From: Candidatus Komeilibacteria bacterium
Lineage (GTDB): Bacteria > Patescibacteriota > Patescibacteriia > UBA1558 > UBA10009
Length of the DNA: 59,763 nucleotides
NCBI GenBank assembly: GCA_026396575.1
Contig: JAPLWM010000005.1
Span: 1 to 59,763 of the forward strand
Direction: 5' to 3'
Shown here: piece by piece, positions 45,695 to 59,763 of the stretch
Position numbering within the stretch: position 1 is the first letter of the stretch
Layout: every line of letters starts with the position of its first letter
Program-made: the position numbers and the translations under genes
The notes under the pieces: generated by a model
The model's database searches: none
What the model saw: the letters and a program-made list of their open reading frames with translations, nothing else
What the model was told of the DNA's origin: nothing

Positions 45695-47554
45695 ATGATG
45701 GAAAAATTTTTTAATTATTTTGACAGGGGTTTGCTGGTAATTTTACTGATTCCTTTAATAATTTTTAATTTTCCTATTTTTCCAAAATCATTGAGTGAAA
45801 TTATTTTTATTGCCGCTTCAATTATCGGCACAATTCCAGTATTAATCAGCGGCATAAAATCCATTAAAGGCAAGCGGATTTCCGTTGATTTGCTGGCCAG
45901 CGTTGCTTTAATCGCCTCCATGGTGGCGCAAGAATGGACTTCAGCCGCCTTCATTAACTTAATGCTTACTTCGGCCAGGATTTTTGGCAATTACACCAAG
46001 AATAAAGCGCGCTCATCAATAGAAAGTTTGCTAAAATTGCGCCCTAAAACCGCTAAGGTAAAAAGAGGCAATAATATTTTGGAAATACCGATTGAGCAGA
46101 TAAAAGTTGATGATTTGATCGTGGTGGAATCAGGGGAAAGATTATCGGTTGATGGCACGGTTATTCAAGGCGAAGCAGCGATTAACCAGGCTTCTTTAAC
46201 CGGCGAATCAGTGCCGGTAAATAAAAAAGCCGGGGATCAGGTTTTTAGCTCTACTTTAAACGAATCAGGTTCGCTGGTTGTTAAAGCGGAAAAAGTCGGC
46301 AAAGACACGACTTTGGAAAAAATCGTGCAGCTGGTGGAAGAATCGCAAAAAGGCAAGCCTAAAATCCGTTCCATTGGCGATGCGTTTGCCAGCCGCTATA
46401 TTGTAATCACCGTGAGCATCGCTATTTTGGTTTATTTGATTACCAATGATTTTAATTTGGTTTTAGCTTTATTGTTAGTTGCCTGCGCCGATGATATTGC
46501 CGTAGCTATCCCCATGGTTTTTTGGGCGGCCATTGGTTATGCGGCGCATCGCGGCGTAATTATTAAAGGCGGAGAATTCTTGGAAGGTTTGGCTCATGTT
46601 AAAACAATTGTTTTTGACAAAACAGGCACGCTCACCCGCGGCAAGCTTAAAGTTCAGCAAGTTCATTTTTATAAAGGATTCACTAAAGAAATTTTATTGC
46701 ATTATGCCGCTTCGGCAGAATGCGTTTCCAATCATCCGATTGCCAAATCCATCATGGAATACGTGGTTAATGAAAAAGTTTCTTATAAAAAGCCGGAAAT
46801 TTTTAAAGAAATTCCAGGTAAAGGCTTGGCCGTGGTTTACGATTCAAAAAAAATATTTTCCGGCCATTTAAGCTTTATTAAGGAGTCAAAAATTAAAATT
46901 ACCGCTGAACAGTCGCGTGAAATTGAAGGAATTGAAGCGCAAGGTTATACGGTAACCATCGTCGGCTGTAATGATAAATTAGTCGGCTATATTGCTTTAG
47001 CTGATGAATTAAGGCATAACAGTTTATTGGTTATGCAGCAGCTTAAACAGGCAGGCGTAGAAAAATTAATCATGCTAACCGGAGATAATAAAAGCGTAGC
47101 CGCGCGAGTGGCTAAGGAATTAGTTTTGGATGAATTCCATGCCGGCTTAATGCCGCAGGATAAATTAAAATACATCAAAGGCGCTCTGCAAAAAGATTCT
47201 AAAATGGCTATGGTGGGGGACGGAGTTAATGACGCTGCCGCCTTATCTCTGGCTGATGTTGGCATTTCCATGGGCGCGATTGGCTCGGACGCTGCCATAG
47301 AAGCGGCTGATATAGCTTTAATGCGCGATGATTTGAGGGAAATCCCGGAAATGGTGCGTTTAAGCCGCTACACGCTAAAAATAGCGCACCAGGATTTTTG
47401 GATTTGGGGCGCAGTTAACGTTATCGGTTTTGCTTTGGTTTTTGGCCATGTAATTGGTCCCGTTGGCGCGGCAGCCTATAATTTTATTACCGACTTTTTG
47501 CCTTTATTGAATTCGGCGCGGCTGTTTAAGCTGCATTTGCAGCTTAAAAAATAA
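45695..47554 (+). CDS. P1B-type heavy-metal ATPase with atypical CADD membrane motif
   Basis: TGES, DKTGTLT, HP, GDGVND; LVACADD where CPx is expected. Confidence 0.9.
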   Translation: MMEKFFNYFDRGLLVILLIPLIIFNFPIFPKSLSEIIFIAASIIGTIPVLISGIKSIKGKRISVDLLASVALIASMVAQEWTSAAFINLMLTSARIFGNYTKNKARSSIESLLKLRPKTAKVKRGNNILEIPIEQIKVDDLIVVESGERLSVDGTVIQGEAAINQASLTGESVPVNKKAGDQVFSSTLNESGSLVVKAEKVGKDTTLEKIVQLVEESQKGKPKIRSIGDAFASRYIVITVSIAILVYLITNDFNLVLALLLVACADDIAVAIPMVFWAAIGYAAHRGVIIKGGEFLEGLAHVKTIVFDKTGTLTRGKLKVQQVHFYKGFTKEILLHYAASAECVSNHPIAKSIMEYVVNEKVSYKKPEIFKEIPGKGLAVVYDSKKIFSGHLSFIKESKIKITAEQSREIEGIEAQGYTVTIVGCNDKLVGYIALADELRHNSLLVMQQLKQAGVEKLIMLTGDNKSVAARVAKELVLDEFHAGLMPQDKLKYIKGALQKDSKMAMVGDGVNDAAALSLADVGISMGAIGSDAAIEAADIALMRDDLREIPEMVRLSRYTLKIAHQDFWIWGAVNVIGFALVFGHVIGPVGAAAYNFITDFLPLLNSARLFKLHLQLKK

Positions 47555-47607
47555 CAGAAAAGAAAAAATAATTTTAAAATATTTAATAATTAATCAATCG
47601 TCAATTT

Positions 47608-48639
47608 ATGAAAAATAAAAACAGCCACATTTTGCAGATTATAAGTTTTTTTGTAATTTTGTCTGTATTCATAATTTTAGCCGTTTTTTTAGCCTTGCCT
47701 TTTTTAAAGCTGTTATTTTTAGCCGTTATTTTAACGATTCTTTTCTTGCCTATGCAAAATTGGCTGGCTAAAAAGTTCAATAACGAATCTTTGGCGGCTT
47801 TGGCGATCATTGCGGCAATTTTAATCGTTATTGTTGTGCCGTTGTATTTTATTGTTCAATCAACAATCGCCAATGCGGTTGATTTTTACGGGCAATATAA
47901 AGAAGGCAATATTAGAATCGATTCTCAATTGTTAATCAACCGTTTGCCGGAAAGATGGCAGGAAAGAGCCTTATATTTAATTGGCGATGTTTCCAGAATA
48001 GCCGGTGAATGGGTAAATAGTTTCAGTTTGGATTTTCAAGCCCTGCTCTCCAATATTGCCGCTTTTCTTTTTTCTTTCTTGCTATTCTTTTTGAGCCTTT
48101 TTTATTTATTAAAGGATCATCATGAAATTAAAAGTTATTTGGAAAAAATATTTCCTTTTTCCACTTCCGATGAAAGTTTATTTATTGATAAAACAACCAA
48201 AGCGGTCAATGGCGTTATTAAAGGTGATTTTATAATTGCTTTAATGCAAGGCACGGCAGCAGCCAGCGGGTTTATTTTGGCCGGATTGCCGCAACCGTTA
48301 TTTTTCGGATTTGTTACGGTTATTTCGTCTTTTATCCCGACCGTTGGAACCAGCTTGGTAATTATCCCGGCAATTATTTATTTATTGCTTTTTAAGTCTT
48401 TACTTTCCGCTTTGCTTTTAGCTATTTGGTATATCTTAATACATCTAACGATAGATAATGTGGTAGCGCCAAAACTGATCGGTTCCAGAACTCATATCCA
48501 TCCGCTGATAATTTTATTCAGCGTGGTCGGCGGCATAAAATTATTCGGCGTTTTCGGCTTTTTATTCGGCCCGATCGCCATGACTATCCTGGTTTCTTTG
48601 GTTGATGTTTACTTGATAAATCAACAGCAAGCTAAATAA
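47608..48639 (+). CDS. AI-2E (PerM) family transporter
   Basis: FIPTVG, DNVVAPKLIG, GFLFGP motifs. Confidence 0.88.
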   Translation: MKNKNSHILQIISFFVILSVFIILAVFLALPFLKLLFLAVILTILFLPMQNWLAKKFNNESLAALAIIAAILIVIVVPLYFIVQSTIANAVDFYGQYKEGNIRIDSQLLINRLPERWQERALYLIGDVSRIAGEWVNSFSLDFQALLSNIAAFLFSFLLFFLSLFYLLKDHHEIKSYLEKIFPFSTSDESLFIDKTTKAVNGVIKGDFIIALMQGTAAASGFILAGLPQPLFFGFVTVISSFIPTVGTSLVIIPAIIYLLLFKSLLSALLLAIWYILIHLTIDNVVAPKLIGSRTHIHPLIILFSVVGGIKLFGVFGFLFGPIAMTILVSLVDVYLINQQQAK

Positions 48640-48673
48640 GTGGCAGGACTCTGAAAAAACGGAAAGTTTAAGG

Positions 48674-48862
48674 TGGTCGTCTCTCCTAGACGAAGCACGA
48701 ACCTTTTTTACAGAAAACAGCTAGCTGTTTTCTGATTTTTTAGGGCGGGGCGGAAGGGGGGTCTGGGGGGAATTCCGCCCTGCCCTCGCTTCCCGCCGGC
48801 CTTTGGCCGGCATTTTATCCGCCTATCGGCGGGCTTTCTTTTCGCCGCCGCAATTTGGCCGT
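48674..48862 (+). repeat. Island left end (attL arm); inverted copy at 57412-57600
   Basis: 189 bp, 1 mismatch seen (48781); GC-rich hairpins, palindrome cagaaaacagctagctgttttctg. Confidence 0.92.
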
Positions 48863-48966
48863 GCCAGCAAAGCTGGTGCGCCACCTTTTACATTGCTTAC
48901 TTTATCAACTTTCACTAATTAAATCAATTCTTCGATAATTCCTTTCAATCCTGTTGTTTTACTATT

Positions 48967-50889
48967 TCAATTTATTATTGGTTGAATATCCTTATTATTT
49001 TGCGTTAACTCACTATTCCATGCACCCTCTAAATTTACTGTTCCACTATTTGGTCTTTTTTCCATTTCAAGTAAATCAATATCAACTTTTACCGGAATAT
49101 CAGATGCCAATCCAGCAACAAAGCAACTACCTACAGACAAAATTGGAATACTCTGAAACGAAAGTTTGTCTAAATAAGCAACTGCCTTTTCTACGGCATT
49201 AATGTCGTTGTCGTTAATTAGTCTATGAATAAAGTAATTATGAAGCTGAGAAATAATGGTTGCTGAGATATCGTATGGCCTTTGGCTCGCAATCGTTAGA
49301 AAGACTCCGAATTTTCTACCCTCTTTAATAATCTCTTCAAAAGTTTCCAAACGATAATCTTTCCATGTCTCACTTTCTCTTTGTGACATAGTTGAGAGTA
49401 TATTGTGAGCCTCATCAATAACTATATGTAGTGATTTTTTGTCTGATTCTTTTTTATTTTCATATAACTGTTTTGCAATGATTAAAGGAATTATTTTTTT
49501 CATCTCAATATTCACATCTCTAAGACATATAATTGATAGATTTTTAGATTCCGTATTTTCATTTATATCAATTAGTTTTTCTAACATGTCAAATTTTCTG
49601 AACATCCTGCCTATCAGCGGGCCTATATGTTCCTGATTAGAGTATCCTTTTATGATTTCATGAAAATAGTTAAAAACAATCTTTAATTTTAGCTTGCTAA
49701 ACTCATCACTTTTAAAAACCAAATTTTCAACTAAGGTCTTTAAGTGGGTAGTATATATGGGACTTGTATTATTAAAATTTGTAGAATTAGTATTATCCCA
49801 ATAATATTCCTCGTTTTTAGAATGATAATGCAAATTATTTTCTACTTCTTTCTTGAGATTGGTTATGGCATCCTTCTTTTCATCCGTAACTAAATTTATA
49901 AGATCTCTAAAAAGCTCAATAATTAATCCTTCTCTTAAATTTCTATCTTTTTTATCAATAACGCTCGTACATGTATCCTCTATACTTGTAATAACACGGG
50001 CATTAAATGTTGCATTGTCATCTAAAAAGTCGTTGCGGATAACTCTGTCTAAAAATGGTTTCTGTGTTTTTTCAGTTGCCTCTAATAAAACTGATAAAAT
50101 TTCAGTTTTATGTATACTATCTTTTGAAATGGGATATTTTTTCTTGCTAACTTTTTTGCCTGTAGAAAGTTCGTAAACAACCTTATCTTTTGTTATCATT
50201 TCATCCCCGATATATTCGCCATTAAAATCTACTACAACAAAATCAGATTTAGTTTTAAAATCATTATTATTGGAAAATACTTTAAAAAGTTCCGTGTAAA
50301 TCTTTGCAAGCGTGTTTGATTTACCACTACCAGTATTGCCAAAAATACCAATATGACTAGCAAATAAATTATTTACTCCTATTTTTATTTTCTGTGACGG
50401 TTCCTCGGTAAGATTGCCTATAGTTATTGTCTTTTCTCCGTTTTTATAAAAATGATGTAGTGAGTTAAATTCATCTCTATTTAAGAGGTAACATTCATTA
50501 TCAATAAGGGGCATCTCTTTGATACCCTGTTTAAAATGAGTGCCCTCAAAATGGCCAAAAAGAGAAACTTGTAATATCCTATTGATTTTAGCTTCCTCCT
50601 TATTATATTCCTTGTTGTAGTATTTTTCTTCTGAAGTAAATTCTCCTTCAACTTTGCCTATAATACTAACAAATCCTTTAACTACTTTTATATAGCTCCC
50701 AACGGAAACATTCTTCACTGTTTTTCCTTCATACAAAATATGGGAGTGATTTTTGTTTTTGTTTAGTTTTATTTTTATAATCCTTCCGTCAACAGACAAA
50801 ACATGACCAATTATAAAAATTGACTCCTTTATTAATTCCTCTTCAATACTCTTAGTTTTTGCAATCATCTTTACATTCATGGGTGGCAC
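48967..50889 (-). CDS. HerA-like (DUF87) ATPase
   Basis: HAS-barrel-like N-terminus, GNTGSGKS, IDEAH, EGRKFG, SQRP; start may be 50868. Confidence 0.9.
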   Translation of the reverse strand: MPPMNVKMIAKTKSIEEELIKESIFIIGHVLSVDGRIIKIKLNKNKNHSHILYEGKTVKNVSVGSYIKVVKGFVSIIGKVEGEFTSEEKYYNKEYNKEEAKINRILQVSLFGHFEGTHFKQGIKEMPLIDNECYLLNRDEFNSLHHFYKNGEKTITIGNLTEEPSQKIKIGVNNLFASHIGIFGNTGSGKSNTLAKIYTELFKVFSNNNDFKTKSDFVVVDFNGEYIGDEMITKDKVVYELSTGKKVSKKKYPISKDSIHKTEILSVLLEATEKTQKPFLDRVIRNDFLDDNATFNARVITSIEDTCTSVIDKKDRNLREGLIIELFRDLINLVTDEKKDAITNLKKEVENNLHYHSKNEEYYWDNTNSTNFNNTSPIYTTHLKTLVENLVFKSDEFSKLKLKIVFNYFHEIIKGYSNQEHIGPLIGRMFRKFDMLEKLIDINENTESKNLSIICLRDVNIEMKKIIPLIIAKQLYENKKESDKKSLHIVIDEAHNILSTMSQRESETWKDYRLETFEEIIKEGRKFGVFLTIASQRPYDISATIISQLHNYFIHRLINDNDINAVEKAVAYLDKLSFQSIPILSVGSCFVAGLASDIPVKVDIDLLEMEKRPNSGTVNLEGAWNSELTQNNKDIQPIIN

Positions 50890-51889
50890 TATTTGAAATC
50901 TCTTTAAAGACTAGCTCATTTATTTTTTCAAGACTAAATTTATTTCTTTGTTCATCGTCGGTTGGCTCAATTATTTCTATATTAGAATATCTTAATTTCC
51001 CTATATGCATTTTTTCTTTCATTTTTGAATCCTTATCTTGTTCATGGCAAAAAATATAAATTTTTAGCGTTGGGTTGGAATTAGCAGTTCTTAGGGTAAT
51101 TTCTCGTATATGTTCGTCTTCCATTGAAAAACCCATGACAAATAAAACCACATTCTCTTTCTCTAATTCACTTGAATACATCCTTAACAATTCATAATAG
51201 GTTAAATCAATAACCGTTTCCTCAAATTTTTTCTTTTCAGGATTAATGATCGCTATTTTACCATATCTTTCGTCAAAATTCTTTCCACTTTTGTTTAGTA
51301 TCGTTTTGTCAAAATGTTTTAATTTTGAAAAATATATATTGTCTTTAATTTTTTCCCATGTAAGCGATCCGTGTATCTTCATTAGGTTGAAAATTGGTAT
51401 CTCAGAAATATTTTCAAAATGCAGACTTCTTTTTAAAATTGATTTCTTAAAATTACTTAAGCTAAATACTGAATTTAATCGACCAGTAAAACCATCGTTA
51501 TATTCCAAACCGCTCTCTTCCAAAACGACCTCCATTAATATGTCGATATTTGTAGTAAAAATATTTGTTTGTTTACTTAAAATAGTATTTTTCCTTTTTA
51601 ATAAAATGTGACTTATTAATTCGAAGAAATTTTTATAAGCTTTACATGTTGAATTAAATTCTGCTTGTTTTATTGCCTCGATGTTACCGGAGATGACGTC
51701 AAGATTTGGCATCATGATTTTCTCAAAATATTCCTTTTTGATTTTTATCCGTTCAGGCTTCCTAGTTTCGATTGAAAGCCTTGTTTCTATATCACCTAAC
51801 AAAGGTAAAAAAGGGGTCGATAATCCAGCTCCAAAAAGGAAATTGATATGTGAACTTTGTACCGCCTCTTTAATTTCTTGAATATTCAT
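50852..51889 (-). CDS. SIR2-like (SIR2_2) NADase
   Basis: FLFGAGLS, FTTNID, KIHGSL, GFSMEDEHI; overlaps the HerA gene. Confidence 0.88.
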   Translation of the reverse strand: MNIQEIKEAVQSSHINFLFGAGLSTPFLPLLGDIETRLSIETRKPERIKIKKEYFEKIMMPNLDVISGNIEAIKQAEFNSTCKAYKNFFELISHILLKRKNTILSKQTNIFTTNIDILMEVVLEESGLEYNDGFTGRLNSVFSLSNFKKSILKRSLHFENISEIPIFNLMKIHGSLTWEKIKDNIYFSKLKHFDKTILNKSGKNFDERYGKIAIINPEKKKFEETVIDLTYYELLRMYSSELEKENVVLFVMGFSMEDEHIREITLRTANSNPTLKIYIFCHEQDKDSKMKEKMHIGKLRYSNIEIIEPTDDEQRNKFSLEKINELVFKEISNSATHECKDDCKN

Positions 51890-51919
51890 AATTTTAAATC
51901 TTAGGTAATTTAGTTTCTA

Positions 51920-53452
51920 CTACGTGCAATACAGTGTATTTCTATTTTCTATGTGAGTCAAAAACTCCTCAATGGTTTTCGGTAAAATTGAAAGGTTCTC
52001 TTTTTCTTTAACATAGTTAATCTGCATTACAGAATCCTTGAATATACTAGGGGCCACAAAGTAGCACATTGAATCCTTTGTTCCTTTTTGGAATTGTCCT
52101 AAATGCCTTGAAATCGGCCACACTTCCATCATTGTTTGCATGCGTCCTTCTGACATCGTAACTTCAACCAATATACCCTTAACATCCTCGAAACATTCAA
52201 TATCGCCCTTATCTCCAACGCCTCCAGCCGTTGATGTTGGGAGGCCTTCATCATCATAAGGATAATTTGGTATTACTCTAACATTTGGAAATTTAGATTT
52301 AATAGCCAAAGACACAAGAAATTCTAATCTGACTGGGTTTGATAAATATTTCAAAACATCATCTTTGGTTAATTTTTTCTTAGCTAAATTTAACATTTCA
52401 TCCTTAATCCTGTTCCAAGGATAAACACCGATCCACTTGGCCAAAAAGGCGTCTCTCTCGCTAATGCTCAACGGCTTGGCAACAAATGAGATAAGATTTT
52501 TATCCACAGTCGACATATATTCAAAATATGACTCCTCCGTGGTGTATTTTTTATAATCAGAATAAGTTGCTAAAGCATAATCAACCTTTGTTTGTTCATT
52601 CCTGTTTATATCAATAAAACGACCAGCACCCCTTAATGAGATTAATCCCGTTAGTCTCATTTTTCTAATAAACTCATCCGGATAATCAACCATTATTGAC
52701 TTCGGATTAAATTTCTTAAAATCATCGTTCATGATCTGGTTAACACAAATATCCACAATAACTTCCCAGCTCGGGGTATAGCCGTGTTCCTTTCTTATTT
52801 TCTTTATGAGTTTGTATAGCTTCTCTGCGTCGTTATCTTTCCAAAAAATAACTAAGGGCAATTCTAATTTTGAAATTCCGGTCCCGTTAAGCTCTTTATC
52901 AGCATTTATTTTATTGATCACGCTCAATAATAAAATCAGCGGTACATTTTCATTGAGCACTCGTCTAAATGGACTATTGCTTTGATATTTTATAAAGGCA
53001 TTAAGAAAAGCCTGCTGTTCAAATTCTGGGTGCTCGTTATCAACCAATTTTAATCCGATATCAGAAAATCTTATTTTTTCACCATTTTTGTAATAGACAA
53101 AACCAAGCTCTTTAGCAATCTTAAACCAAGTATCGAATCGGGAAGCCCAGCCCTTACTAAATCCGGCTTCTTTATGGTTTTGCGGATTATCCTCAAGAGA
53201 CTTTTTCACTTCGGCATTGGATAATGGTTCTTTTGCTTCAATTTTTTTCTTTACAATAGCACTTATATTGGTCGGCTTGTATAATCCAACCCGAATAACT
53301 TCACCGGAAATTTCTTCAGCCAACTGATCGTCAAGAACTTTTCCATCATAATCCTTTAAGACCCCTAAAAACCACTTAAGCCTTTCCGGGTTTCTAAGTG
53401 TGGTAGTAAATAATAATGGTTTATATTCCGATTCTCTTGTTTTTGTTTTCAT
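51920..53452 (-). CDS. AlwI-family type IIS restriction endonuclease
   Basis: FTTTLRNPER N-terminus; DDEGLPTSTAGG..GDIE..LVEVT catalytic-like C-terminus; follows two MTases. Confidence 0.82.
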   Translation of the reverse strand: MKTKTRESEYKPLLFTTTLRNPERLKWFLGVLKDYDGKVLDDQLAEEISGEVIRVGLYKPTNISAIVKKKIEAKEPLSNAEVKKSLEDNPQNHKEAGFSKGWASRFDTWFKIAKELGFVYYKNGEKIRFSDIGLKLVDNEHPEFEQQAFLNAFIKYQSNSPFRRVLNENVPLILLLSVINKINADKELNGTGISKLELPLVIFWKDNDAEKLYKLIKKIRKEHGYTPSWEVIVDICVNQIMNDDFKKFNPKSIMVDYPDEFIRKMRLTGLISLRGAGRFIDINRNEQTKVDYALATYSDYKKYTTEESYFEYMSTVDKNLISFVAKPLSISERDAFLAKWIGVYPWNRIKDEMLNLAKKKLTKDDVLKYLSNPVRLEFLVSLAIKSKFPNVRVIPNYPYDDEGLPTSTAGGVGDKGDIECFEDVKGILVEVTMSEGRMQTMMEVWPISRHLGQFQKGTKDSMCYFVAPSIFKDSVMQINYVKEKENLSILPKTIEEFLTHIENRNTLYCT

Positions 53453-53456
53453 ATAT

Positions 53457-54362
53457 TTAATAATTGGTAATTAATACTTCTTTAATCTGCTTCTTACCGT
53501 TATTGTGGTAGCTGATGTAATTGCTTTCGATTTTGTGTGTCTTATATTTTTTCATCCAATTAATTAGCAAATCATTCGTGCTACCGTTATAATGGGTTAC
53601 ATTTGATAGAGCAAACTTAACATCTTTTTTATCTAAATTATCAATCATTTTTAGTAAGTCAGCTTCAGCTTTTTGATCCCACCGCTTATTATATTCACTT
53701 GATGTTATTAGATATGGCGGGTCTAAATAAACAAAGTCATTCTTAGAATATTTTCTGTTGGCAAAATATGTTCTAAAATCCTTTGAACTTAAAGTTATCT
53801 TTTTATCTTGGACAAAATCAAAATAGCCATTAAGGGCGTTAACAACATTTTTGTTAAAATCAACATTACCAACCGGCAAATTAAATTTGCCACCGCCATT
53901 AAACCTCAACATTCTGTTAAAACCATAAATAAGCAAAATATACAGAATTAGAGGATCATTCTTTATGTTCTTGTTTACACAAACTCTTAATTTTTCGTAA
54001 CCCTCTTTATTAAATTTGGCAAAATAGGTCTTTTTCCATTCTTTTTTTAATGAGGCCGGAATTACATCTTCTTTATAAGATCGTGAAAGATGATATTTTT
54101 TGATTATCTTTTCTACATTCTTAAAAAATAAAGCTGGGTTACTCGCATTGCTAATCAAGAAACGATGTATGTTAATTAGGTTTTTATCGTTATCGTTTAA
54201 GTAATATTTATTTGCCTGGATATTTAAAAAAACCGTACCGCCACCGACAAATGGCTCATAAAAATTGTTTATCTCCTGCGGAAATAAAACGATCAATTGC
54301 TTCATTAGTTTATATTTATCTCCAACGTAAAACAGTGGGGATCTTTTGATTTTATTACTCAT
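53457..54362 (-). CDS. N6-adenine DNA methyltransferase (Dam/D12 class)
   Basis: SPLFYVGDK, EPFVGGG, YLDPPY, EVLITNY. Confidence 0.93.
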   Translation of the reverse strand: MSNKIKRSPLFYVGDKYKLMKQLIVLFPQEINNFYEPFVGGGTVFLNIQANKYYLNDNDKNLINIHRFLISNASNPALFFKNVEKIIKKYHLSRSYKEDVIPASLKKEWKKTYFAKFNKEGYEKLRVCVNKNIKNDPLILYILLIYGFNRMLRFNGGGKFNLPVGNVDFNKNVVNALNGYFDFVQDKKITLSSKDFRTYFANRKYSKNDFVYLDPPYLITSSEYNKRWDQKAEADLLKMIDNLDKKDVKFALSNVTHYNGSTNDLLINWMKKYKTHKIESNYISYHNNGKKQIKEVLITNY

Positions 54363-56169
54363 TTTTTACTTTTGTTACGAACAAATATTCTTTATGATTA
54401 TTAAAATTTGTATTACCTGTGTTGAAATGTCTGTAATTTTTTTCAAAAACTTTGGTTGACCCCTTGGTCTTTAGAATTCTTTCTATTTCTTGAAGAGTAA
54501 TTTTATTTCGCGATGAATTGCTTTTTGAGTCATAAGTGTTGTTATATGAAACAACTAGATATTTGGCGTCTAGATCTTTTACCAGTTCTGCGAGTTTATC
54601 TTTGGCGTTATTTCGGCAATAATCACTCATGTTTTCTGATTCTGGCTTTAACGCAACGCCATAAAGTTTTGGTTTATCCCATTTAGTTAATGTCTCAAGG
54701 ACATGGTAAAATCTACTGTATTGCCTAGAATTGTAAGGCGGATCAATGTAAACAACATCGGCCTTTATTTTTTTAGCTAAAATATTCGTATCTTCTTGGA
54801 AAATAGATATTTCTTGGGTATCAATCGGATCAATAGGTTTCATGAAAAAACTATCATTTACAAATTCTTTTTTAAAATAGGCGTCAAAATGTCCGACGGT
54901 ATTAGCAATTTTATCAGCAGTATAAAGCAATGAAGCAATTAACATGTAATATTCTCTTTGAGTCAAATTATTTTTATTTTCTTCAATATTTTCTCTAATA
55001 AAACCGATGATTTTAGCCGAATTATTGCTGAAAAATTTACCCCCAAAACTTTTAGAAAAATAATTATCCTCTAAATCATCAGCGTAAATATTATTATAGT
55101 TTTTAATAATACCATCTACTTTATTTTTATCCCAAACTTCATTTCCAAAAAAGGCGCGATATATCGCGTAATTGGAATGTAAGAAATCATTTAATAACAC
55201 TTTTTTGAATTGTTTTGTAGCCACGGCCGAAACCACACCTGTCCCAGCAAATATATCCGCAAAAGAATTTCCACTACATTCTTTATTGATAATAGAAAAA
55301 ATCCATTCAATTAACTTGTGCTTATTACCTATATATCTGCGGTTATGTAATTGAATATGATTTTCCTTTACTTGCGGAATATAAAAGTAATTTTCTTGAA
55401 TTTTTTCCGCGGTTATTTCGTAGGATGGTTTTTTGACTTCAAATAATGTAAAAAGTGTGGCCTGCATCCCGCCGTCGGCAACATAATCAAGGCCCTCTTT
55501 TTGTTTTTGTAACTTTTCGTGAAAACTATAATGATTATTCTCAGAAACAATAATAAAATCAATTACAGGTATCCCCATTATTTCTCCAGCTTGTACAATT
55601 TTTTCAACTATTTGATTATCTTTTTCACTTGGCGATGAGTCGCCTGATGGGTGATTGTGAATTAAGATGACGCTGGCGGCATTTAATTCCGTAGCTGGGT
55701 AAAAAATTTCTCTTGGATGTAGAAGTGCCTTATCTAATAGTCCAACACTAACGATTTCTTTTTTGAGTAGAGAATTTCTCGCATTAAGATATAAGCAAAC
55801 TAAATACTCTTTTTTCTTATCTCTTAAATCATAAGTAAATGATAAAACATCTTGAGAATTTTTAATAATAATTTCATTTGATTTTTCATCCGCATAAAAT
55901 CTTTTTACCAAAGAAATCGCCGAAGAAATTTGTAACGCCTTTGCTTGACCAATCCCGGAAATTTCCAAAAGATCATTAACTGTTATATTTAAAAAGTTTT
56001 TTCCAAATTTTTTTATAATACCCTCTGAGAGCTGCTTAACATTTTTACCTTTTATGCCGCTACCTAAAATAATTGCTAAAAGATCGCTTTTAGAAAGTGC
56101 ATCTGGACCTTTTTCTAAAAACCTTTCGCGAGGTCTATCAATTTTTGGGATATCCTTTAACTTTCCCAT
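54355..56169 (-). CDS. RadC (JAB) domain fused to an N6-adenine DNA methyltransferase
   Basis: RPRER, HPREIF, HNHPSGD..PS..D then RRYIGNK, DIFAGTG, YIDPPY. Confidence 0.88.
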   Translation of the reverse strand: MGKLKDIPKIDRPRERFLEKGPDALSKSDLLAIILGSGIKGKNVKQLSEGIIKKFGKNFLNITVNDLLEISGIGQAKALQISSAISLVKRFYADEKSNEIIIKNSQDVLSFTYDLRDKKKEYLVCLYLNARNSLLKKEIVSVGLLDKALLHPREIFYPATELNAASVILIHNHPSGDSSPSEKDNQIVEKIVQAGEIMGIPVIDFIIVSENNHYSFHEKLQKQKEGLDYVADGGMQATLFTLFEVKKPSYEITAEKIQENYFYIPQVKENHIQLHNRRYIGNKHKLIEWIFSIINKECSGNSFADIFAGTGVVSAVATKQFKKVLLNDFLHSNYAIYRAFFGNEVWDKNKVDGIIKNYNNIYADDLEDNYFSKSFGGKFFSNNSAKIIGFIRENIEENKNNLTQREYYMLIASLLYTADKIANTVGHFDAYFKKEFVNDSFFMKPIDPIDTQEISIFQEDTNILAKKIKADVVYIDPPYNSRQYSRFYHVLETLTKWDKPKLYGVALKPESENMSDYCRNNAKDKLAELVKDLDAKYLVVSYNNTYDSKSNSSRNKITLQEIERILKTKGSTKVFEKNYRHFNTGNTNFNNHKEYLFVTKVKNE

Positions 56170-56171
56170 AG

Positions 56172-57020
56172 TTATTTTTTATACACTTCTTCTAAAGTTT
56201 TGCCACTTTCAGTTTTCCATTTTTTCCATCCGCTAGTTGAATTTCCTAAAATAATATCAGATGCGGCGCTTGGACTATTAAAGACATAATCTTTAATAAA
56301 TGCATACAAATTATTATCTTTTTTCCTAAGATATTTATTTAACAAAAGCTTTTCTATAATTTTTTGATTACGTTCAATTACCGCTTTTGAAATATCATTT
56401 GACGCAGTTGAATCTTTATAAACAACAAACCCATCATTCGTCATGCGGCCTGTTGCTAAAGCGTTTTTACCTTTGCAAGTAAAAAGAGGATCTGATATAT
56501 TTTTTTGTTCTTTAGAAATAACTTCTTGTAGAATAGGATATCCTAGGGCGGAAAGAAGCAATTTTAAATTTTCCAAAAATTCTTCTATTTCGGCGATGTC
56601 AGCTTCAGACAAAGAGGGCAAAGTAGATTCTGTGCCATTTTCTAAATTAAATCGTTTTGCTTGGGTTGCTAAAGCTAAACATCTGCTTTCTAAATATCTA
56701 ACATGAGCCTTTGTTAAATTATTATCTTTACTCACAAACGCCACTGCGGTTTGCCAAAAATCTTTTGAACTATCATGAGTAGACAGTCTATTCCATAAAT
56801 TTTCTGCCTCACCGATATATGCAGTAGGTAAAAGAGCATCTTCACTTTCTTTACCAACAAGAAAATATATAGCCGGCTTATTACATTCGGGACGTTGTTT
56901 GGTTTCTTTTAACTTATTTCTAGGAATAACAATTGCTTGACCAACCCAATTACTTAATTCAGCGGTTTTTAAGCCATTTGGTTCGCCGTCAATTAAAAAT
57001 ATTTTTATTGTCTTTGCCAT
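56172..57020 (-). CDS. GIY-YIG nuclease with DUF4357-like domain
   Basis: AIYFL..AYIGEAE..RL..H; FNSPSAAS..ILG..SGWKKWK. Confidence 0.85.
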   Translation of the reverse strand: MAKTIKIFLIDGEPNGLKTAELSNWVGQAIVIPRNKLKETKQRPECNKPAIYFLVGKESEDALLPTAYIGEAENLWNRLSTHDSSKDFWQTAVAFVSKDNNLTKAHVRYLESRCLALATQAKRFNLENGTESTLPSLSEADIAEIEEFLENLKLLLSALGYPILQEVISKEQKNISDPLFTCKGKNALATGRMTNDGFVVYKDSTASNDISKAVIERNQKIIEKLLLNKYLRKKDNNLYAFIKDYVFNSPSAASDIILGNSTSGWKKWKTESGKTLEEVYKK

Positions 57021-57024
57021 AGAA

Positions 57025-57225
57025 TTATTTAATTAAATCATCGACGCCAACTTCAAGCGCTTTGGCAATCTTAGTCAATGTTTCAATTGTTGGGTTTTGA
57101 TTAACGCCATTTTCAACCTTTACAATGGTATTAAGCGACAAATCAGCCAAGCGGGCTATTCTTTCAAGTGAAAGACCTTTTTTACCCCGCAGTTTCTTTA
57201 AGTTTTCGGAAATGTTATTTGACAT
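57025..57225 (-). CDS. XRE/HTH regulator, probable R-M controller (C) protein
   Basis: 66-aa HTH_3 pattern (ENG..NPTIETL.KIAKALEV) leading the R-M operon. Confidence 0.85.
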   Translation of the reverse strand: MSNNISENLKKLRGKKGLSLERIARLADLSLNTIVKVENGVNQNPTIETLTKIAKALEVGVDDLIK

Positions 57226-57237
57226 AGTTATTGAAAA

Positions 57238-57258
57238 TATATACTATTATAGTATATA
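57238..57258. promoter_or_regulatory. C-box-like operator palindrome
   Basis: tatatactat-t-atagtatata just upstream of the HTH start. Confidence 0.55.
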
Positions 57259-57411
57259 GAATATAATATAAAGGATTCTTTCTTGGTATTACAATGATAA
57301 TGAATTTTTAGGTTTTTGTCTATTACTAGGGAGTTCCTAAATATTGCCCGCGCACGGGTGGGTGGGGCAAGGGCAATATATTAAAAGTGGCGCATTCCGC
57401 GTAAGCGGAAT

Positions 57412-57744
57412 ACGGCCAAATTGCGGCGGCGAAAAGAAAGCCCGCCGATAGGCGGATAAAATGCCGGCCAAAGGCCGGCGGGAAGCGAGGGCGGGGCGGA
57501 ATTCCCCCCAGACCCCCCTTCCGCCCCGCCCTAAAAAATCAGAAAACAGCTAGCTGTTTTCTGTAAAAAAGGTTCGTGCTTCGTCTAGGAGAGACGACCA
57601 TTCAATACATTCAAAACTTTTATCCTTACGCCCCAGCGTAGCTGGGGCGCTACCCGCGCCGCCAAAACCTATATATTTAGGGATTAAATTGTAAGGCGAA
57701 ACAAAATCCAGCAGAGCTTTTTTCTGGAACAGGCGGCGGTTCGT
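57412..57744 (-). repeat. Internal inverted copy of the island circle junction (attP-like)
   Basis: Reverse complement equals 59269-59418 joined through TGGTCG to 48680-48862; one mismatch per arm. Confidence 0.92.
57550..57744 (-). pseudogene. Orphan recombinase 3' end encoding the attP-form C-terminus
   Basis: TNRRL..FECIEWSSLLDEARTFFTENS* versus ..FECIEWSGMPDL.. in the full gene. Confidence 0.8.
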
Positions 57745-57900
57745 AAAGCGCCGGAGGCGCTTAAAGCACAAATAATTTAATCCTAGATCATTAAATTATT
57801 TTGCTTGCCAATTTTTTCCGCTTTCCCGCCTTTGGCGGGAAAACAAAGCAAGTTTTCCCATAATAGGCCAAAAGCCACTTAAAATAACAAACTAAACACT

Positions 57901-59496
57901 ATGAAAACAAAATACTTTCTTTATGCCAGAAAATCAACAGAAGACGAGGAACGGCAAGTAATGAGCATTGAAGCTCAATTAACGGAGTTGGCTGACTTTG
58001 CTAAAAGAGAAAATATTGAAATTGTGGAAACTTTCATTGAATCTAAAAGCGCAAAGAAACCGGGCAGAGAAATATTTAACCAAATGATGAGTAAGGTATA
58101 TTCCAGCAAAGAGCCTATCGGCTTAATCGCTTGGCATCCGGATAGATTGGCTCGTAATAGCGTTGATGGAGGACAAATCATTTATTGTATAGATTTAGGT
58201 AAAATAGTTTCTTTGCGCTTTCCAACATTTTGGTTTGAGCCAACTCCGCAAGGATTATTTATGCTTCAAGTGGCTTTTGGCCAATCTAAGTATTACTCTG
58301 ACAATTTAAGTGAAAATGTTAAGCGTGGAATCAGGCAAAAACTCAGGCGCGGAGAGTGTCCGCACTTTGCTCCGTTTGGCTATATTAATAATCCTAAAAC
58401 AAGGAACCTTGAACCGGATGAAGTTAAAGCTAAAATCGTTAAAAAAGCGTTTGAAGAGTTTGCCACCGGCAAACACACCTTGGAATCTCTAAGCGAGTGC
58501 CTGAGTTTTTGGGGCATTACGAGCAAGACAGGAAAACCGCCTTGTAAAGCCACTATTCAAAGGATGTTAAATAACATTACCTATTTAGGTATTATTAAGC
58601 ATAACGGTGAAAGCTATGAGGGCGTTTTTCCTGCTCTAGTTGACAGAGCGACTTTTGAAGCTGTTCAGAAAGTCCAAAAACAACGAGCAAGGCCCAGGAA
58701 GTCCAAAAAGAGGCATAACTTCCCATTTATTGGGTTTTTAAGCTGTGGCGAATGCAAGGCCTCTATTACTGCTCAATTTGCCCACGGCAACGGCGGAACT
58801 TACAGGTATTACCGCTGTACCAAAAGATTGGGGCCTTGCGGGCAAAAATACTTACAAGAGGGCTTGCTGGCCGAACAGTTAAAAGATCAGCTTCAAAAAG
58901 TCGCTCTGCCTGATGATTGGGCTAAGAATATGTTAGCTAAAGTAGATGTTTGGGAAAAAGAAACTAGGCAGTCCAGTCAATCTTTCGCCCAAAATCTTAA
59001 TGACAAAATTAATGAAACAGAGCAGAAATTAGATAGATTGGTAAATACCTTTTTAGAGGGAAATATTGAAAAAGAAATATACCTAATTAAAAAAGATGAA
59101 TTGATTAAAACAAAAACAGACCTTAATAACAAAAAGTCTGATTTTGGGCGAAAGGGCAATTATTGGATTGAACCTTTGCGAAACTGGATAAACACTGCCA
59201 ATCATTGCGGAAAACTTGCTTTGTCCAATGATTTTTACGAAATTAAATCATTGGCGGAAAAAATTAGAACGAACCGCCGCCTGTTCCAGAAAAAAGCTCT
59301 GCTGGATTTTGTTTCGCCTTACAATTTAATCCCTAAATATATAGGTTTTGGCGGCGCGGGTAGCGCCCCAGTTACGCTGGGGCGTAAGGATAAAAGTTTT
59401 GAATGTATTGAATGGTCGGGGATGCCGGATTTGAACCGGCGACCTCACGCACCCCATGCGTGCGCGCTAGCCAACTGCGCTAATCCCCGTTATTGA
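57901..59496 (+). CDS. Large serine recombinase (integrase)
   Basis: YARKS catalytic Ser, DRLAR, recombinase domain, CGEC..YYRC Zn ribbon, coiled coil; 3' end overlaps the tRNA antisense. Confidence 0.95.
   Translation: MKTKYFLYARKSTEDEERQVMSIEAQLTELADFAKRENIEIVETFIESKSAKKPGREIFNQMMSKVYSSKEPIGLIAWHPDRLARNSVDGGQIIYCIDLGKIVSLRFPTFWFEPTPQGLFMLQVAFGQSKYYSDNLSENVKRGIRQKLRRGECPHFAPFGYINNPKTRNLEPDEVKAKIVKKAFEEFATGKHTLESLSECLSFWGITSKTGKPPCKATIQRMLNNITYLGIIKHNGESYEGVFPALVDRATFEAVQKVQKQRARPRKSKKRHNFPFIGFLSCGECKASITAQFAHGNGGTYRYYRCTKRLGPCGQKYLQEGLLAEQLKDQLQKVALPDDWAKNMLAKVDVWEKETRQSSQSFAQNLNDKINETEQKLDRLVNTFLEGNIEKEIYLIKKDELIKTKTDLNNKKSDFGRKGNYWIEPLRNWINTANHCGKLALSNDFYEIKSLAEKIRTNRRLFQKKALLDFVSPYNLIPKYIGFGGAGSAPVTLGRKDKSFECIEWSGMPDLNRRPHAPHACALANCANPRY
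59269..59418 (+). repeat. Island right end (attR arm); inverted copy at 57595-57744
   Basis: 150 bp, 1 mismatch (ccagttacg vs ccagctacg). Confidence 0.92.
59413..59489 (-). tRNA. tRNA-Pro(GGG)
   Basis: CGGGGAT/ATCCCCG acceptor, CACGC/GCGTG stem with loop ATGGGGT, GGTTCAAATCC, CCA. Confidence 0.95.
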
Positions 59497-59542
59497 TATT
59501 AATTTAAGCACCTTTACCCGCCAGAGCGATAGCGACGGCGGG

Positions 59543-59578
59543 CCATGCATGCGCGCTAGCCAACTGCGCCACACCCCG
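59543..59578 (-). pseudogene. 5' half of a second tRNA-Pro, broken in the anticodon loop
   Basis: CGGGGTGTGGCGCAGTTGGCTAGCGCGCATGCATGG then unrelated hairpin; TATAAT just upstream. Confidence 0.75.
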
Positions 59579-59763
59579 ATATTAGTGTTATTATAATCAT
59601 AAATCTAAATTTTACAAGCTTTTTAGGCTCTACGCCAAATAGTGTGGTGGAAAAGTCAAAAGCAGTGGTAATATTAGCTTGAAAACAGAGTTTCTCAACT
59701 CAAGGCTAAAATTAATCACTGCTTCTATGAAAAAATGTATCAGTAAAATGTTAAATCTGCAAG

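Follow-up and report, generated by a model that had tools for sequence, protein, structure and literature searches.

The question raised by the locus described here is why an integrated island keeps an inverted copy of its own attachment site in its interior. The locus lies on contig JAPLWM010000005.1 of Candidatus Komeilibacteria bacterium (assembly GCA_026396575.1; Patescibacteriota), which was analyzed at its full length of 59,763 nt and is called the window in the following; it is the whole of contig C1 in a 996-kb genome of metagenome type comprising 40 contigs. The island spans positions 48674-59418 (10.7 kb) at a tRNA-Pro(ggg) gene and carries a large serine recombinase (LSR) gene together with a cargo of defence genes. 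Three attachment (att)-type sites could be distinguished: attL (flank-core-a), an inverted attP (a'-core-b') and attR (b-core-tRNA), where a and b denote the left and the right arm of the island and a' and b' their inner copies. This build is standard for a widespread family of small tRNA-targeting LSR islands and extends beyond the single island in the window. The answer that we favour, with somewhat more than even confidence, is that the inner inverted attP makes the LSR gene an invertible orientation switch.

The layout was determined by a repeat search of positions 47000-59763, in which two inverted pairs of 99% identity were identified. The pair I1 (48674-48862 and 57412-57600; 189 nt) surrounds the cargo, and the pair I2 (57595-57744 and 59269-59418; 150 nt) surrounds the recombinase gene. 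Since these are the only inverted repeats of at least 30 nt in this range, a chance origin is excluded. The two pairs overlap by the 6 nt CGACCA (57595-57600), which is the inner core, read on the minus strand, and the centre of the inverted attP. Its reverse complement, the core hexamer TGGTCG, occurs at the left junction (attL; 48674-48679, plus strand) as a displaced copy of the tRNA 3' end and again at 59413-59418 within the tRNA gene itself. On the minus strand, the segment 57412-57744 consists of arm b (right end), the core and arm a (left end), which is the junction expected of an excised circle. TGGTCG is the 3' end of tRNA-Pro(ggg) and is common to both arm pairs; the inner block is therefore the right end, the core and the left end of the island in inverted orientation.

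The single mismatch of the arm a pair is a T versus a C in CCGCCC(T/C)GCCC, that of the arm b pair lies at position 57641 (G, with an A in the other copy), and the sequences outside the arms differ between the copies. A previous reading, made from the sequence alone (in the following the sequence-only reading), had described the shared TGGTCG at both island ends, the composition of the inner block, the inverted repeats of 189 bp around the defence cargo and 150 bp around the recombinase, as well as one mismatch per arm and divergent flanks. All of these points were reproduced here, the coordinates to the base. Its view that the two modules are nested had to be corrected, as they lie side by side and share the inner core.

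The outer copy of arm a (48680-48862, plus strand; P' arm) starts with approximately 30 nt that form a recombinase half-site ending in CGAACC, followed by three terminator-like hairpins, directed inward as seen from the core, and by a GC-rich hairpin whose loop is rich in G. The inner inverted copy a' (57412-57594, minus strand) carries the terminator-like hairpins on the minus strand. Arm b (59269-59412, plus strand) is the outer copy on the right side, and its last 4 nt together with the core restore the discriminator base and the CCA of the tRNA. The inner copy b' (57601-57744, minus strand; P arm) is an inverted copy of the last approximately 50 recombinase codons (in tblastn, residues 457-513 match 57744-57574). 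The inner boundary of arm b is marked by the motif CGAACCGCCGCC at about residue 451-457 of the LSR, beside a GC hairpin, and this motif recurs in relatives; at the inner block, a GC hairpin is located at 57747-57763, directly past arm b'.

Further observations concern the arms themselves. The GC-rich hairpin of arm a (48741-48790 and 57484-57533) is also present in the second island of the same genome (locus L010, contig C9) and in many related loci; its stem covaries between loci, its loop has the form GGGGG-N2-4-GGGGG, and its orientation varies from island to island. Possible interpretations are a protein-binding site and a small mobile hairpin. An Rfam scan of 48500-49000, covering arm a, gave no match near the gathering score. 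Two other interpretations of the repeats were discarded. Terminal inverted repeats of two transposon-like modules with a 6-bp target duplication do not explain the layout, as the outer hexamers recur at the inner site in reverse complement and not as a direct repeat. An open reading frame (ORF) at 57550-57771 (minus strand, TTG start), which copies the last approximately 50 recombinase residues, was rejected as a gene: by eye, no ribosome binding site was seen, and a hairpin lies in its first codons.

The recombinase (57901-59496, plus strand) comprises 531 aa and shows the Pfam domains Resolvase, Recombinase and Zn_ribbon_recom. The catalytic domain PF00239 matches residues 6-152 (E-value 8.7e-21) and contains, near the N-terminus, the motif YARKSTEDE, the serine of which we take to be the nucleophile. 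PF07508 and PF13408 match residues 175-262 (3.4e-12) and 275-331 (2.3e-7), respectively, and residues from about 330 to 420 appear helix-prone as judged by eye, which might reflect the coiled-coil insertion of the zinc-ribbon domain by which large serine recombinases control directionality. A distant full-length match to SPbeta integrase chains was obtained (6-462 against 16-504; 2.7e-6). Thus the assignment to the serine recombinases, made in the sequence-only reading, holds, and the Pfam domains specify a large one. The ORF crosses arm b, continues in frame through the core (read as TGG TCG) and has its stop codon 78 nt inside the antisense strand of the tRNA gene. Since the crossover lies within the ORF, the protein tail would consist of 26 aa of tRNA antisense in the state found in the window, here termed parked, and of 16 aa from arm a in the circle or in the flipped state.

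The integration target, tRNA-Pro(ggg), is located at 59413-59489 on the minus strand (attR side) and was found to be intact by ARAGORN. The features of a tRNA island are present: an intact tRNA at one end, its 3' end repeated at the other end, an integrase beside the tRNA and a foreign composition, the GC content being 0.27-0.37 in the cargo versus 0.33-0.48 in the left flank. In 64 related loci, the outer end of arm b overlaps the tRNA 3' end by 3-10 nt. Most relatives target tRNA-Pro genes; Gln, Trp, Ala, Arg, Lys, Val, Asp, Ser and Phe tRNA genes were also found. To look for an empty site, the left-flank gene was searched in 41 related genomes; only short matches were obtained, in 4 of them (the genome of the window included), no genome of the same genus turned up, and no empty site was seen.

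As the crossover dinucleotide we infer the CG at 48678-48679. In a dyad-centre test, the best half-integer centre (-0.5) corresponds to the last two core bases with a score of 0.364, while the integer centre -5 scores 0.369. In serine integrases, a non-palindromic central dinucleotide sets the polarity. The last two core bases are CG for tRNA-Pro targets, which would be palindromic, and TG, GG, AG or TC for other tRNA targets. A GAAC motif is located 20 nt past the core on the a side, here and in 47 of 64 relatives, and 15 nt past the core on the tRNA side, within the T-arm, here and in 52 of 64. For the Listeria LI integrase, the zinc-ribbon DNA motif is present in both sites and lies 5 bp nearer to the centre in attB than in attP, according to Rutherford et al. 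(PMC3783163). The shift from +20 to +15 matches this rule, so that arm a behaves as a P-type half-site mimicking the tRNA T-arm, and the site system of the island fits an orthodox attP/attB pair of a large serine recombinase.

Several irregular target sites were noted. In the window, 59543-59599 is an 81% copy of the tRNA-Pro 5' half plus upstream bases; the copy breaks off in the anticodon loop, and a GC hairpin comes next. This segment probably remains from an older insertion or from a second tRNA-Pro gene that was broken. In L133 (9580-9700), approximately 45 nt of the tRNA-Pro 3' half are duplicated in tandem directly before the core, which suggests that a larger portion of the tRNA is carried or copied in some lineages. 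In L140 (1950-2260), neither a tRNA nor arm a adjoins the core next to arm b; unrelated sequence and a convergent helix-turn-helix (HTH)-type gene are found there instead, and the locus may represent a non-tRNA target or a decayed site.

To what extent the three-site build is shared was determined by a search with the LSR, which yielded 523 relatives in genome contigs and 570 in metagenome contigs; the best 80 of each were examined (160 loci). An inverted b'/b pair around the LSR gene was found in 129 of the 160 loci; for the 88 loci that extend 400 nt or more upstream and have an almost complete gene, the count is 82. In 93 of the 129 pairs the identity is at least 97%. Of the 46 loci with a left flank of at least 3 kb, 27 show an abutting a/a' pair, defined as lying within -60 to +25 nt of the b' start (the overlap is 0-22 nt in most cases). 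Its absence from the remaining 19 may reflect a cargo that exceeds the fetched flank or an alternative form of the locus. Both pairs are found in L052 on a contig of 640 kb; on a contig of 6.2 Mb, L078 and L086 have the b'/b pair but lack an a pair within 10 kb. In viral contigs no relative of the recombinase was found, and there is hence no sign of a phage vehicle among close relatives. The sequence-only reading had suggested looking for internal inverted attP sites in other islands, and the survey establishes this layout as the family's standard build.

The most direct objection is that the inner block is an assembly artefact, produced from a mixture of integrated and excised forms or by a chimeric join. 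The assembly is indeed of the metagenome type with its 40 contigs, and the island ends 345 nt from the contig end. For comparison with sequencing runs, the Logan contigs of four runs were aligned to 48863-59268, and a contig was regarded as bridging a junction from 31 nt onward. No contig bridges 57411/57412 by this length. In the likely source run (X1) and in two runs of another study (X5, X6), a contig extends from the cargo to position 57432, 21 nt into the inner arm, and in the same runs a 176-nt arm contig shows about twice the depth of its neighbours. Against an artefact, a mixture of forms would lead to branches in the assembly graph and not to an inverted copy with two unique flanks. 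Moreover, one base differs in each arm pair, the second study (X5, X6) reproduces the flank from the cargo to the inner arm, and the same build occurs across many studies and assemblers, on contigs of up to 640 kb (both pairs) and 6.2 Mb (b'/b). The earlier claim that an assembly duplication is unlikely is thus backed by the recurrence in other assemblies and by the one mismatch per arm, while the Logan contigs reaching from the cargo into the inner arm support it only in part. An artefact is hardly credible, and it is close to certain that the three-site build is real and family-wide.

The same genome contains additional islands of this type, and paralogues of the LSR are located beside other tRNA genes. 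At a tRNA-Asn gene on contig C9, an island with an LSR of 45.6% identity has the same build, with arms of approximately 241 nt around the cargo and 73 nt around the LSR gene, and its inner block again consists of end, core and end. A third island, on contig C17 (34954-39656; L008, 14954-19656), opens with TAAGG, TGGTCG and an arm a of 92% identity and is cut off by the end of the contig; the last ORF of its minus-strand cargo (64 aa) stops 213 nt short of this end, at the point at which an inner arm would be expected. On the 2.4-kb contig of a recombinase paralogue (C13; 31.6% identity), no inverted arms were found. Apart from these, the genome assembly contains tRNA-Pro(ggg) and tRNA-Pro(cgg) but no tRNA-Pro(tgg), which is probably located beside the unassembled right end of the C17 island. 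The last 138 nt of the window (59626-59763) are 100% identical to ends of contigs C5, C10, C29 and C37 and represent a multi-copy element that breaks the assembly; the start of C8 and the end of C9 carry another common repeat in inverted orientation.

A real inner block could still be without function if it were what remains after a large deletion, either of a second copy of the element in inverted orientation or of an older, nested insertion. Remnants of older insertions do exist, namely 46 nt at the right end of the C9 island, the duplicate of the tRNA 3' half in L133 and the segment 59543-59599. These do not account for the same precise block in 129 of 160 loci with recombinases down to 45% identity, nor for the conserved inner boundary of arm b with CGAACCGCCGCC beside the hairpin. 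A neutral relic would also be expected to decay and be lost, whereas the arms are held at approximately 99% identity within loci, compared to approximately 60% between loci. By its recurrence, this explanation is close to refuted, and we regard it as very improbable. As for the origin of the block, no path on paper leads from simpler precursors to an inner P-P' site by site-specific inversion or integration alone, without a prior duplication.

The arms in relatives range from 92 to 608 nt in length. The median identity within a locus is 99.5% for arm b (37 loci) and 98.4% for arm a (31 loci), while the median between loci is 60.5% and 58%, respectively. The arms thus evolve in concert. Since recombination at the core does not equalise the arms, their homogeneity must result from gene conversion or from a step by which they are regenerated. 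In 4 of 6 evaluable loci without a detectable b pair, the a'-core-b' arrangement is still present, with diverged arms and conserved half-site motifs, which implies that the inner site is kept even where the long homology is gone.

Evidence for activity of the inner site comes from the orientation of the LSR gene. In the common state, a minus-strand tRNA is located at the 3' end of the LSR gene (113 of 160 loci, and 109 of 131 with at least 150 nt downstream). This strong dominance of one orientation excludes free 50/50 flipping or a fast balanced switch. In L054, L065, L102, L105, L133 and L153, a plus-strand tRNA adjoins b' through the core, so that the LSR gene lies behind the tRNA on the same strand. 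The order in L153 is tRNA(+)-core-b'-LSR-b-core-a, and its far side (LSR-b-TGGTCG-a) is visible; in L134, LSR-b-core-a, the HTH gene and the cargo follow one another on the same strand. L153 and L134 are what an inversion of b'-LSR-b alone predicts. Furthermore, L102 and L162, located on different metagenome contigs, are 99.93% identical over 1362 nt, and the homology begins exactly at CGACCA, left of which L102 contains tRNA-Pro and L162 arm a'.

In L050 and L037, the LSR gene is located between two inverted tRNA-Pro genes. This is the product expected of a recombination of the inner attP with a second attB, inverting the chromosome between them. Taken on these loci, the inner site is very probably recombinationally active in nature. 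The sequence-only reading had proposed that a free attP could recombine with another attB, and the footprints with a second tRNA-Pro bear this out. Its proposal that either module could flip with the tRNA left intact stands for the LSR module, which occurs in both orientations among close relatives, and not for the cargo. A cargo inversion would place the HTH gene, which serves as a marker and is described below, at the outer arm; this was observed in 0 of 31 loci with a placed marker. Overall, the interpretation given there is partly supported: it was too narrow in treating a family trait as a property of one island, and too broad with respect to cargo flipping and circles.

An alternative purpose of the inner site would be found in the excised circle, where two inverted attP sites would permit integration through either of them. 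The orientation variants would then arise at integration, and the spare attP would double the chance of integration or allow a cassette exchange at paired attB sites. Excision through attL x attR would of necessity produce a circle carrying two attP sites, the half-sites of the two copies are identical, and, as seen in the two-tRNA forms, an attB can serve as partner of the inner attP. Equal use, however, predicts that about half of the islands have both modules reversed, whereas in 113 of 160 the LSR gene is directed into the tRNA. In L153 and L134, where the far side is visible, the LSR gene is reversed relative to the cargo and not the island as a whole. The excised circle with two attP sites, to which the sequence-only reading had also pointed, was found neither in the Logan contigs nor in the viral contigs. 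We therefore consider a purpose in the circle to be distinctly improbable. A related idea, in which the inner attP pairs as a single-strand splint with both ends of imported single-stranded DNA, by analogy to the attP hairpin of CTX phage and to integron attC sites, was dropped as no workable serine-recombinase reaction was found; we see it as a very distant option.

Under the reading favoured here, the island would enter when attP and attB recombine at the CG in the tRNA end ...CCCCG-ACCA. The inner attP would remain a live substrate, and the LSR gene would thereby be an invertible cassette. In the parked state, as in the window, the LSR gene would run head-on into the tRNA gene without a terminator, its ORF ending in the tRNA antisense, and this state would be the stable majority. 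An inversion between the inner attP and attR would place the LSR gene downstream of the tRNA gene on the same strand. The flipped ORF would end in arm a, 16 instead of 26 residues past the core, and be followed by three terminators, as in the circle. The orientation could in this way gate LSR expression and hence mobility, and, as a side effect, the free attP could capture another attB. That the inner site works as a switch of LSR expression or mobility is a tentative proposal, to which we give less than an even chance.

A number of observations weigh against this reading. The alternative forms are rare, with 9 loci compared to 113 with the LSR gene towards the tRNA, and some are damaged: the LSR gene of L153 lacks 89 N-terminal codons and that of L054 lacks its 3' end. 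Such forms may be frozen relics and not working states. In L054, L065, L102, L105 and L133, a simple flip and a two-tRNA form are indistinguishable because the far side of the LSR gene lies off the contig. The cargo is not found inverted in any of the 31 loci mentioned above, though its arms are as long as the b arms. In the population of the window, flipping was not observed directly: the Logan contigs of the four runs showed no joints, and the b-type variant at 57641 was present on a single contig of X6. A consensus scan revealed no promoter for the LSR gene. Finally, according to PMC3783163, the LSRs studied so far recombine attP x attB only, and no other pairing, when a directionality factor is absent; an attP x attR inversion made by the LSR would therefore break the known pairing rule.

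This last point leads to the question of whether the flip is made by the LSR or by host homologous recombination on the 150-nt arms. The host pathway can be extended to an explanation of the whole layout: the arms would be substrates of RecA, giving rise to gene conversion, occasional flips and cassette swaps between islands, for instance after natural transformation, and the inner attP would have no att function of its own. At 92-608 nt, the arms far exceed the approximately 50 bp contacted by a serine integrase (PMC3783163). Their identity of approximately 99% within a locus, compared to approximately 60% between loci, requires conversion, which an exchange at the core does not provide. Logan contigs that match beside the inner arm diverge at 57193, 57403 and 57773, placing the same arms beside different neighbours, and on C17 a 92% copy of arm a stands beside a different cargo.

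Other observations speak against this explanation. In 4 of 6 loci, the inner site and its conserved half-site motifs persist although the similarity of the arms is no longer detectable; the inner block consists without exception of precisely b-core-a, its core being derived from the tRNA; and the two-tRNA forms L050 and L037 require an event of the attP x attB type and not homology. Cargo flips, which should be as easy for RecA, were found in 0 of 31 loci; as approximately 5% would be expected, this is not significant. As an explanation of the layout as a whole, we judge recombination by the host to be unlikely. With regard to the flipping agent alone, the LSR would be favoured by the site kept without homology, the exact b-core-a design and the two-tRNA products, and RecA by the length and homogeneity of the arms.

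Within the favoured reading of an invertible LSR gene, the strongest version is that the LSR inverts its own gene by inner attP x attR recombination. The locus would then be a natural reversible integrase toggle, with the LSR parked head-on at the tRNA or armed behind the tRNA promoter, gating mobility across the candidate phyla radiation (CPR) and other phyla, and with the free attP driving inversions between tRNA genes. Such a toggle would be reversible without a directionality factor, since a flip turns attP and attR into attP and attR again. In this full form the proposal is doubtful.

The gene next to the inner site on the cargo side deserves attention as a possible partner of the LSR. 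It encodes a 66-aa Xre/Cro-type HTH protein (57025-57225, minus strand; Pfam HTH_3, 2e-14), is the first gene of the cargo operon and is divergent from the LSR gene, with the inverted attP between the two. HTH_3 was identified in 8 of 10 small ORFs tested from relatives, namely in all 8 minus-strand ones beside the inner arm; the 2 plus-strand ones were without it. Using a hidden Markov model of these HTH proteins, a minus-strand gene was found 216-724 nt to the left of b' in 31 loci (a stretch of 900 nt or more is available on this side in approximately 58). L061 and L143 differ in that the HTH gene is located between b' and the LSR gene. The Xre-type HTH protein of 60-80 aa is the only conserved small partner of the LSR among relatives and is a candidate for a repressor, a directionality factor or a restriction-modification controller. 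Between the inner a' and the HTH gene, the motif TTGCCCCACCCACCCGTGCGCG is located at 57339-57365, just upstream of promoter-like hexamers, and has equivalents in L028, L047, L051 and L069; it is a candidate operator/promoter element of the HTH/cargo operon.

The left module forms a single minus-strand operon. The HTH gene is followed by a DUF4357 protein (56172-57020; Pfam), which matches the PADLOC candidate defence family PDC-S14. Next to it, a RadC-like JAB domain is fused to a D12-class methyltransferase (54355-56169; Pfam, PADLOC); this ORF of 604 aa combines the RadC-like JAB domain, with a UPF0758 N-terminal domain, and the D12-class adenine methyltransferase. A D12-class N6-adenine DNA methyltransferase (53457-54362; Pfam, PADLOC) and an AlwI-like type II restriction endonuclease (51920-53452; Pfam RE_AlwI, 1.8e-42; PADLOC REase_II, 2.5e-127) follow. 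With the endonuclease and two D12-class methyltransferases in one operon, a type II restriction-modification system is predicted. The last two genes code for a SIR2-like protein (50852-51889; Pfam SIR2_2, 5.9e-12; PADLOC SIR2, 2.5e-60) and its partner, a HerA-type ATPase (48967-50889; Pfam DUF87/HerA, 8.6e-19; PADLOC HerA, 5.5e-176). They overlap at 50852-50889 and, by the adjacency of the two genes, represent a predicted SIR2-HerA defence system.

The cargo differs in other loci, where type I and type III restriction genes, an AAA_15/DUF2130 pair, transporters and proteins without a family match were found. The cargo of the C9 island (L010, 11529-15039, in the segment 27000-45053 of that contig in genome G000) contains a MORC-like ATPase, a short TIR-domain fragment, an IS3-type transposase pair and an 8xMP membrane protein, and no HTH gene. 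At the right end of the same island, 46 extra nt with a-like and b-like remnants are located between arm b and the tRNA.

In comparison with known LSR systems (SPbeta SprA/YokA, Listeria A118/LI integrase, phiC31, Bxb1), the island has in common the three-domain recombinase, the short attP/attB core, the 5-nt shift of the half-sites and a target gene that is left intact. Known LSR elements have a single attP and, after integration, attL and attR only, whereas here a second complete, inverted attP is kept inside with arms of 150-600 nt held identical to the ends. In addition, the target here is the tRNA 3' end with the T-arm, phage genes are absent and no directionality factor was identified.

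The layout of a recombinase gene between inverted repeats recalls the serine DNA invertases, such as Salmonella Hin, whose gene lies inside the invertible H segment, Mu Gin with the G segment and P1 Cin. In both cases a serine recombinase gene is located in or beside a segment with inverted repeats, and the cassette is found in both orientations. The invertases are small serine recombinases that act on sites of 26-34 bp with a Fis-bound enhancer, as described in PMC3798978. In contrast, the enzyme here is an integrase-type LSR of 531 aa, the arms measure 150-189 nt, the sites are attP and attR of an integrated mobile island and one orientation is dominant. Membership in the Hin/Gin type was rejected for this reason, as only the layout is common.

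Tycheposons (Hackl et al., bioRxiv 10.1101/2020.12.28.424599) are likewise small tRNA islands with defence or adaptive cargo, a minority of which use a large serine recombinase. Most of them, however, carry tyrosine recombinases and replication genes, and the passages of that work that were compared mention no internal inverted attachment site; the word attP does not occur, and inverted repeat appears in the reference list alone. Engineered cassettes (MiMIC and recombinase-mediated cassette exchange) and the Bxb1/phiC31 memory switches also place two inverted attP sites around a cassette or use inversion as a switch. These are synthetic and react attP x attB to attL and attR after one flip, while the natural layout pairs attP with attR (or attL), so that a flip would regenerate the site types and could be reversible. 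In the integration-dependent immunity of mycobacteriophages, the attachment site lies in a gene of the element and integration changes its 3' end; tyrosine integrases and a degradation tag or a repressor gene are involved there. The crossover within an ORF of the element, here that of the recombinase, which alters its tail, is a similar feature.

Literature searches on elements with two attP sites or with an internal or inverted one, on tRNA-associated LSRs, on islands of CPR bacteria, on invertible LSR genes and on LSR surveys yielded only synthetic cassettes and switches and no natural element of this build. In the LSR survey of Durrant et al. (2022; PMC10083194), which lists predicted att sites of thousands of LSRs in supplementary tables, the words tRNA and inverted repeat are absent from the main text. 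The sequence-only reading had named no described element with such a layout, and the searches are in line with this. The recombinase and the island type are known; as far as the searches show, the three-site architecture, the concerted arms and the flipping integrase cassette are undescribed.

The islands form a large and so far undescribed family of tiny elements, consisting of a recombinase, a regulator and 1-9 kb of cargo, which spread restriction, SIR2-HerA and other defence genes among uncultured bacteria with small genomes and without known conjugative or phage vehicles. In 78 of the 160 loci, the contig ends less than 500 nt upstream of the LSR gene; because the repeats break the assemblies there, the islands and their neighbouring tRNA genes are systematically lost or split in metagenome-assembled genomes. 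The rule that serine integrases recombine attP x attB only and are then locked underlies both phage biology and the tools of genome engineering. An element that keeps an unlocked attP and a flipped integrase cassette would represent a new integrase regulation or a new pairing of sites. If the attP x attR inversion is indeed made by the LSR, a natural integrase toggle would gate the mobility of islands with defence cargo across CPR and other phyla.

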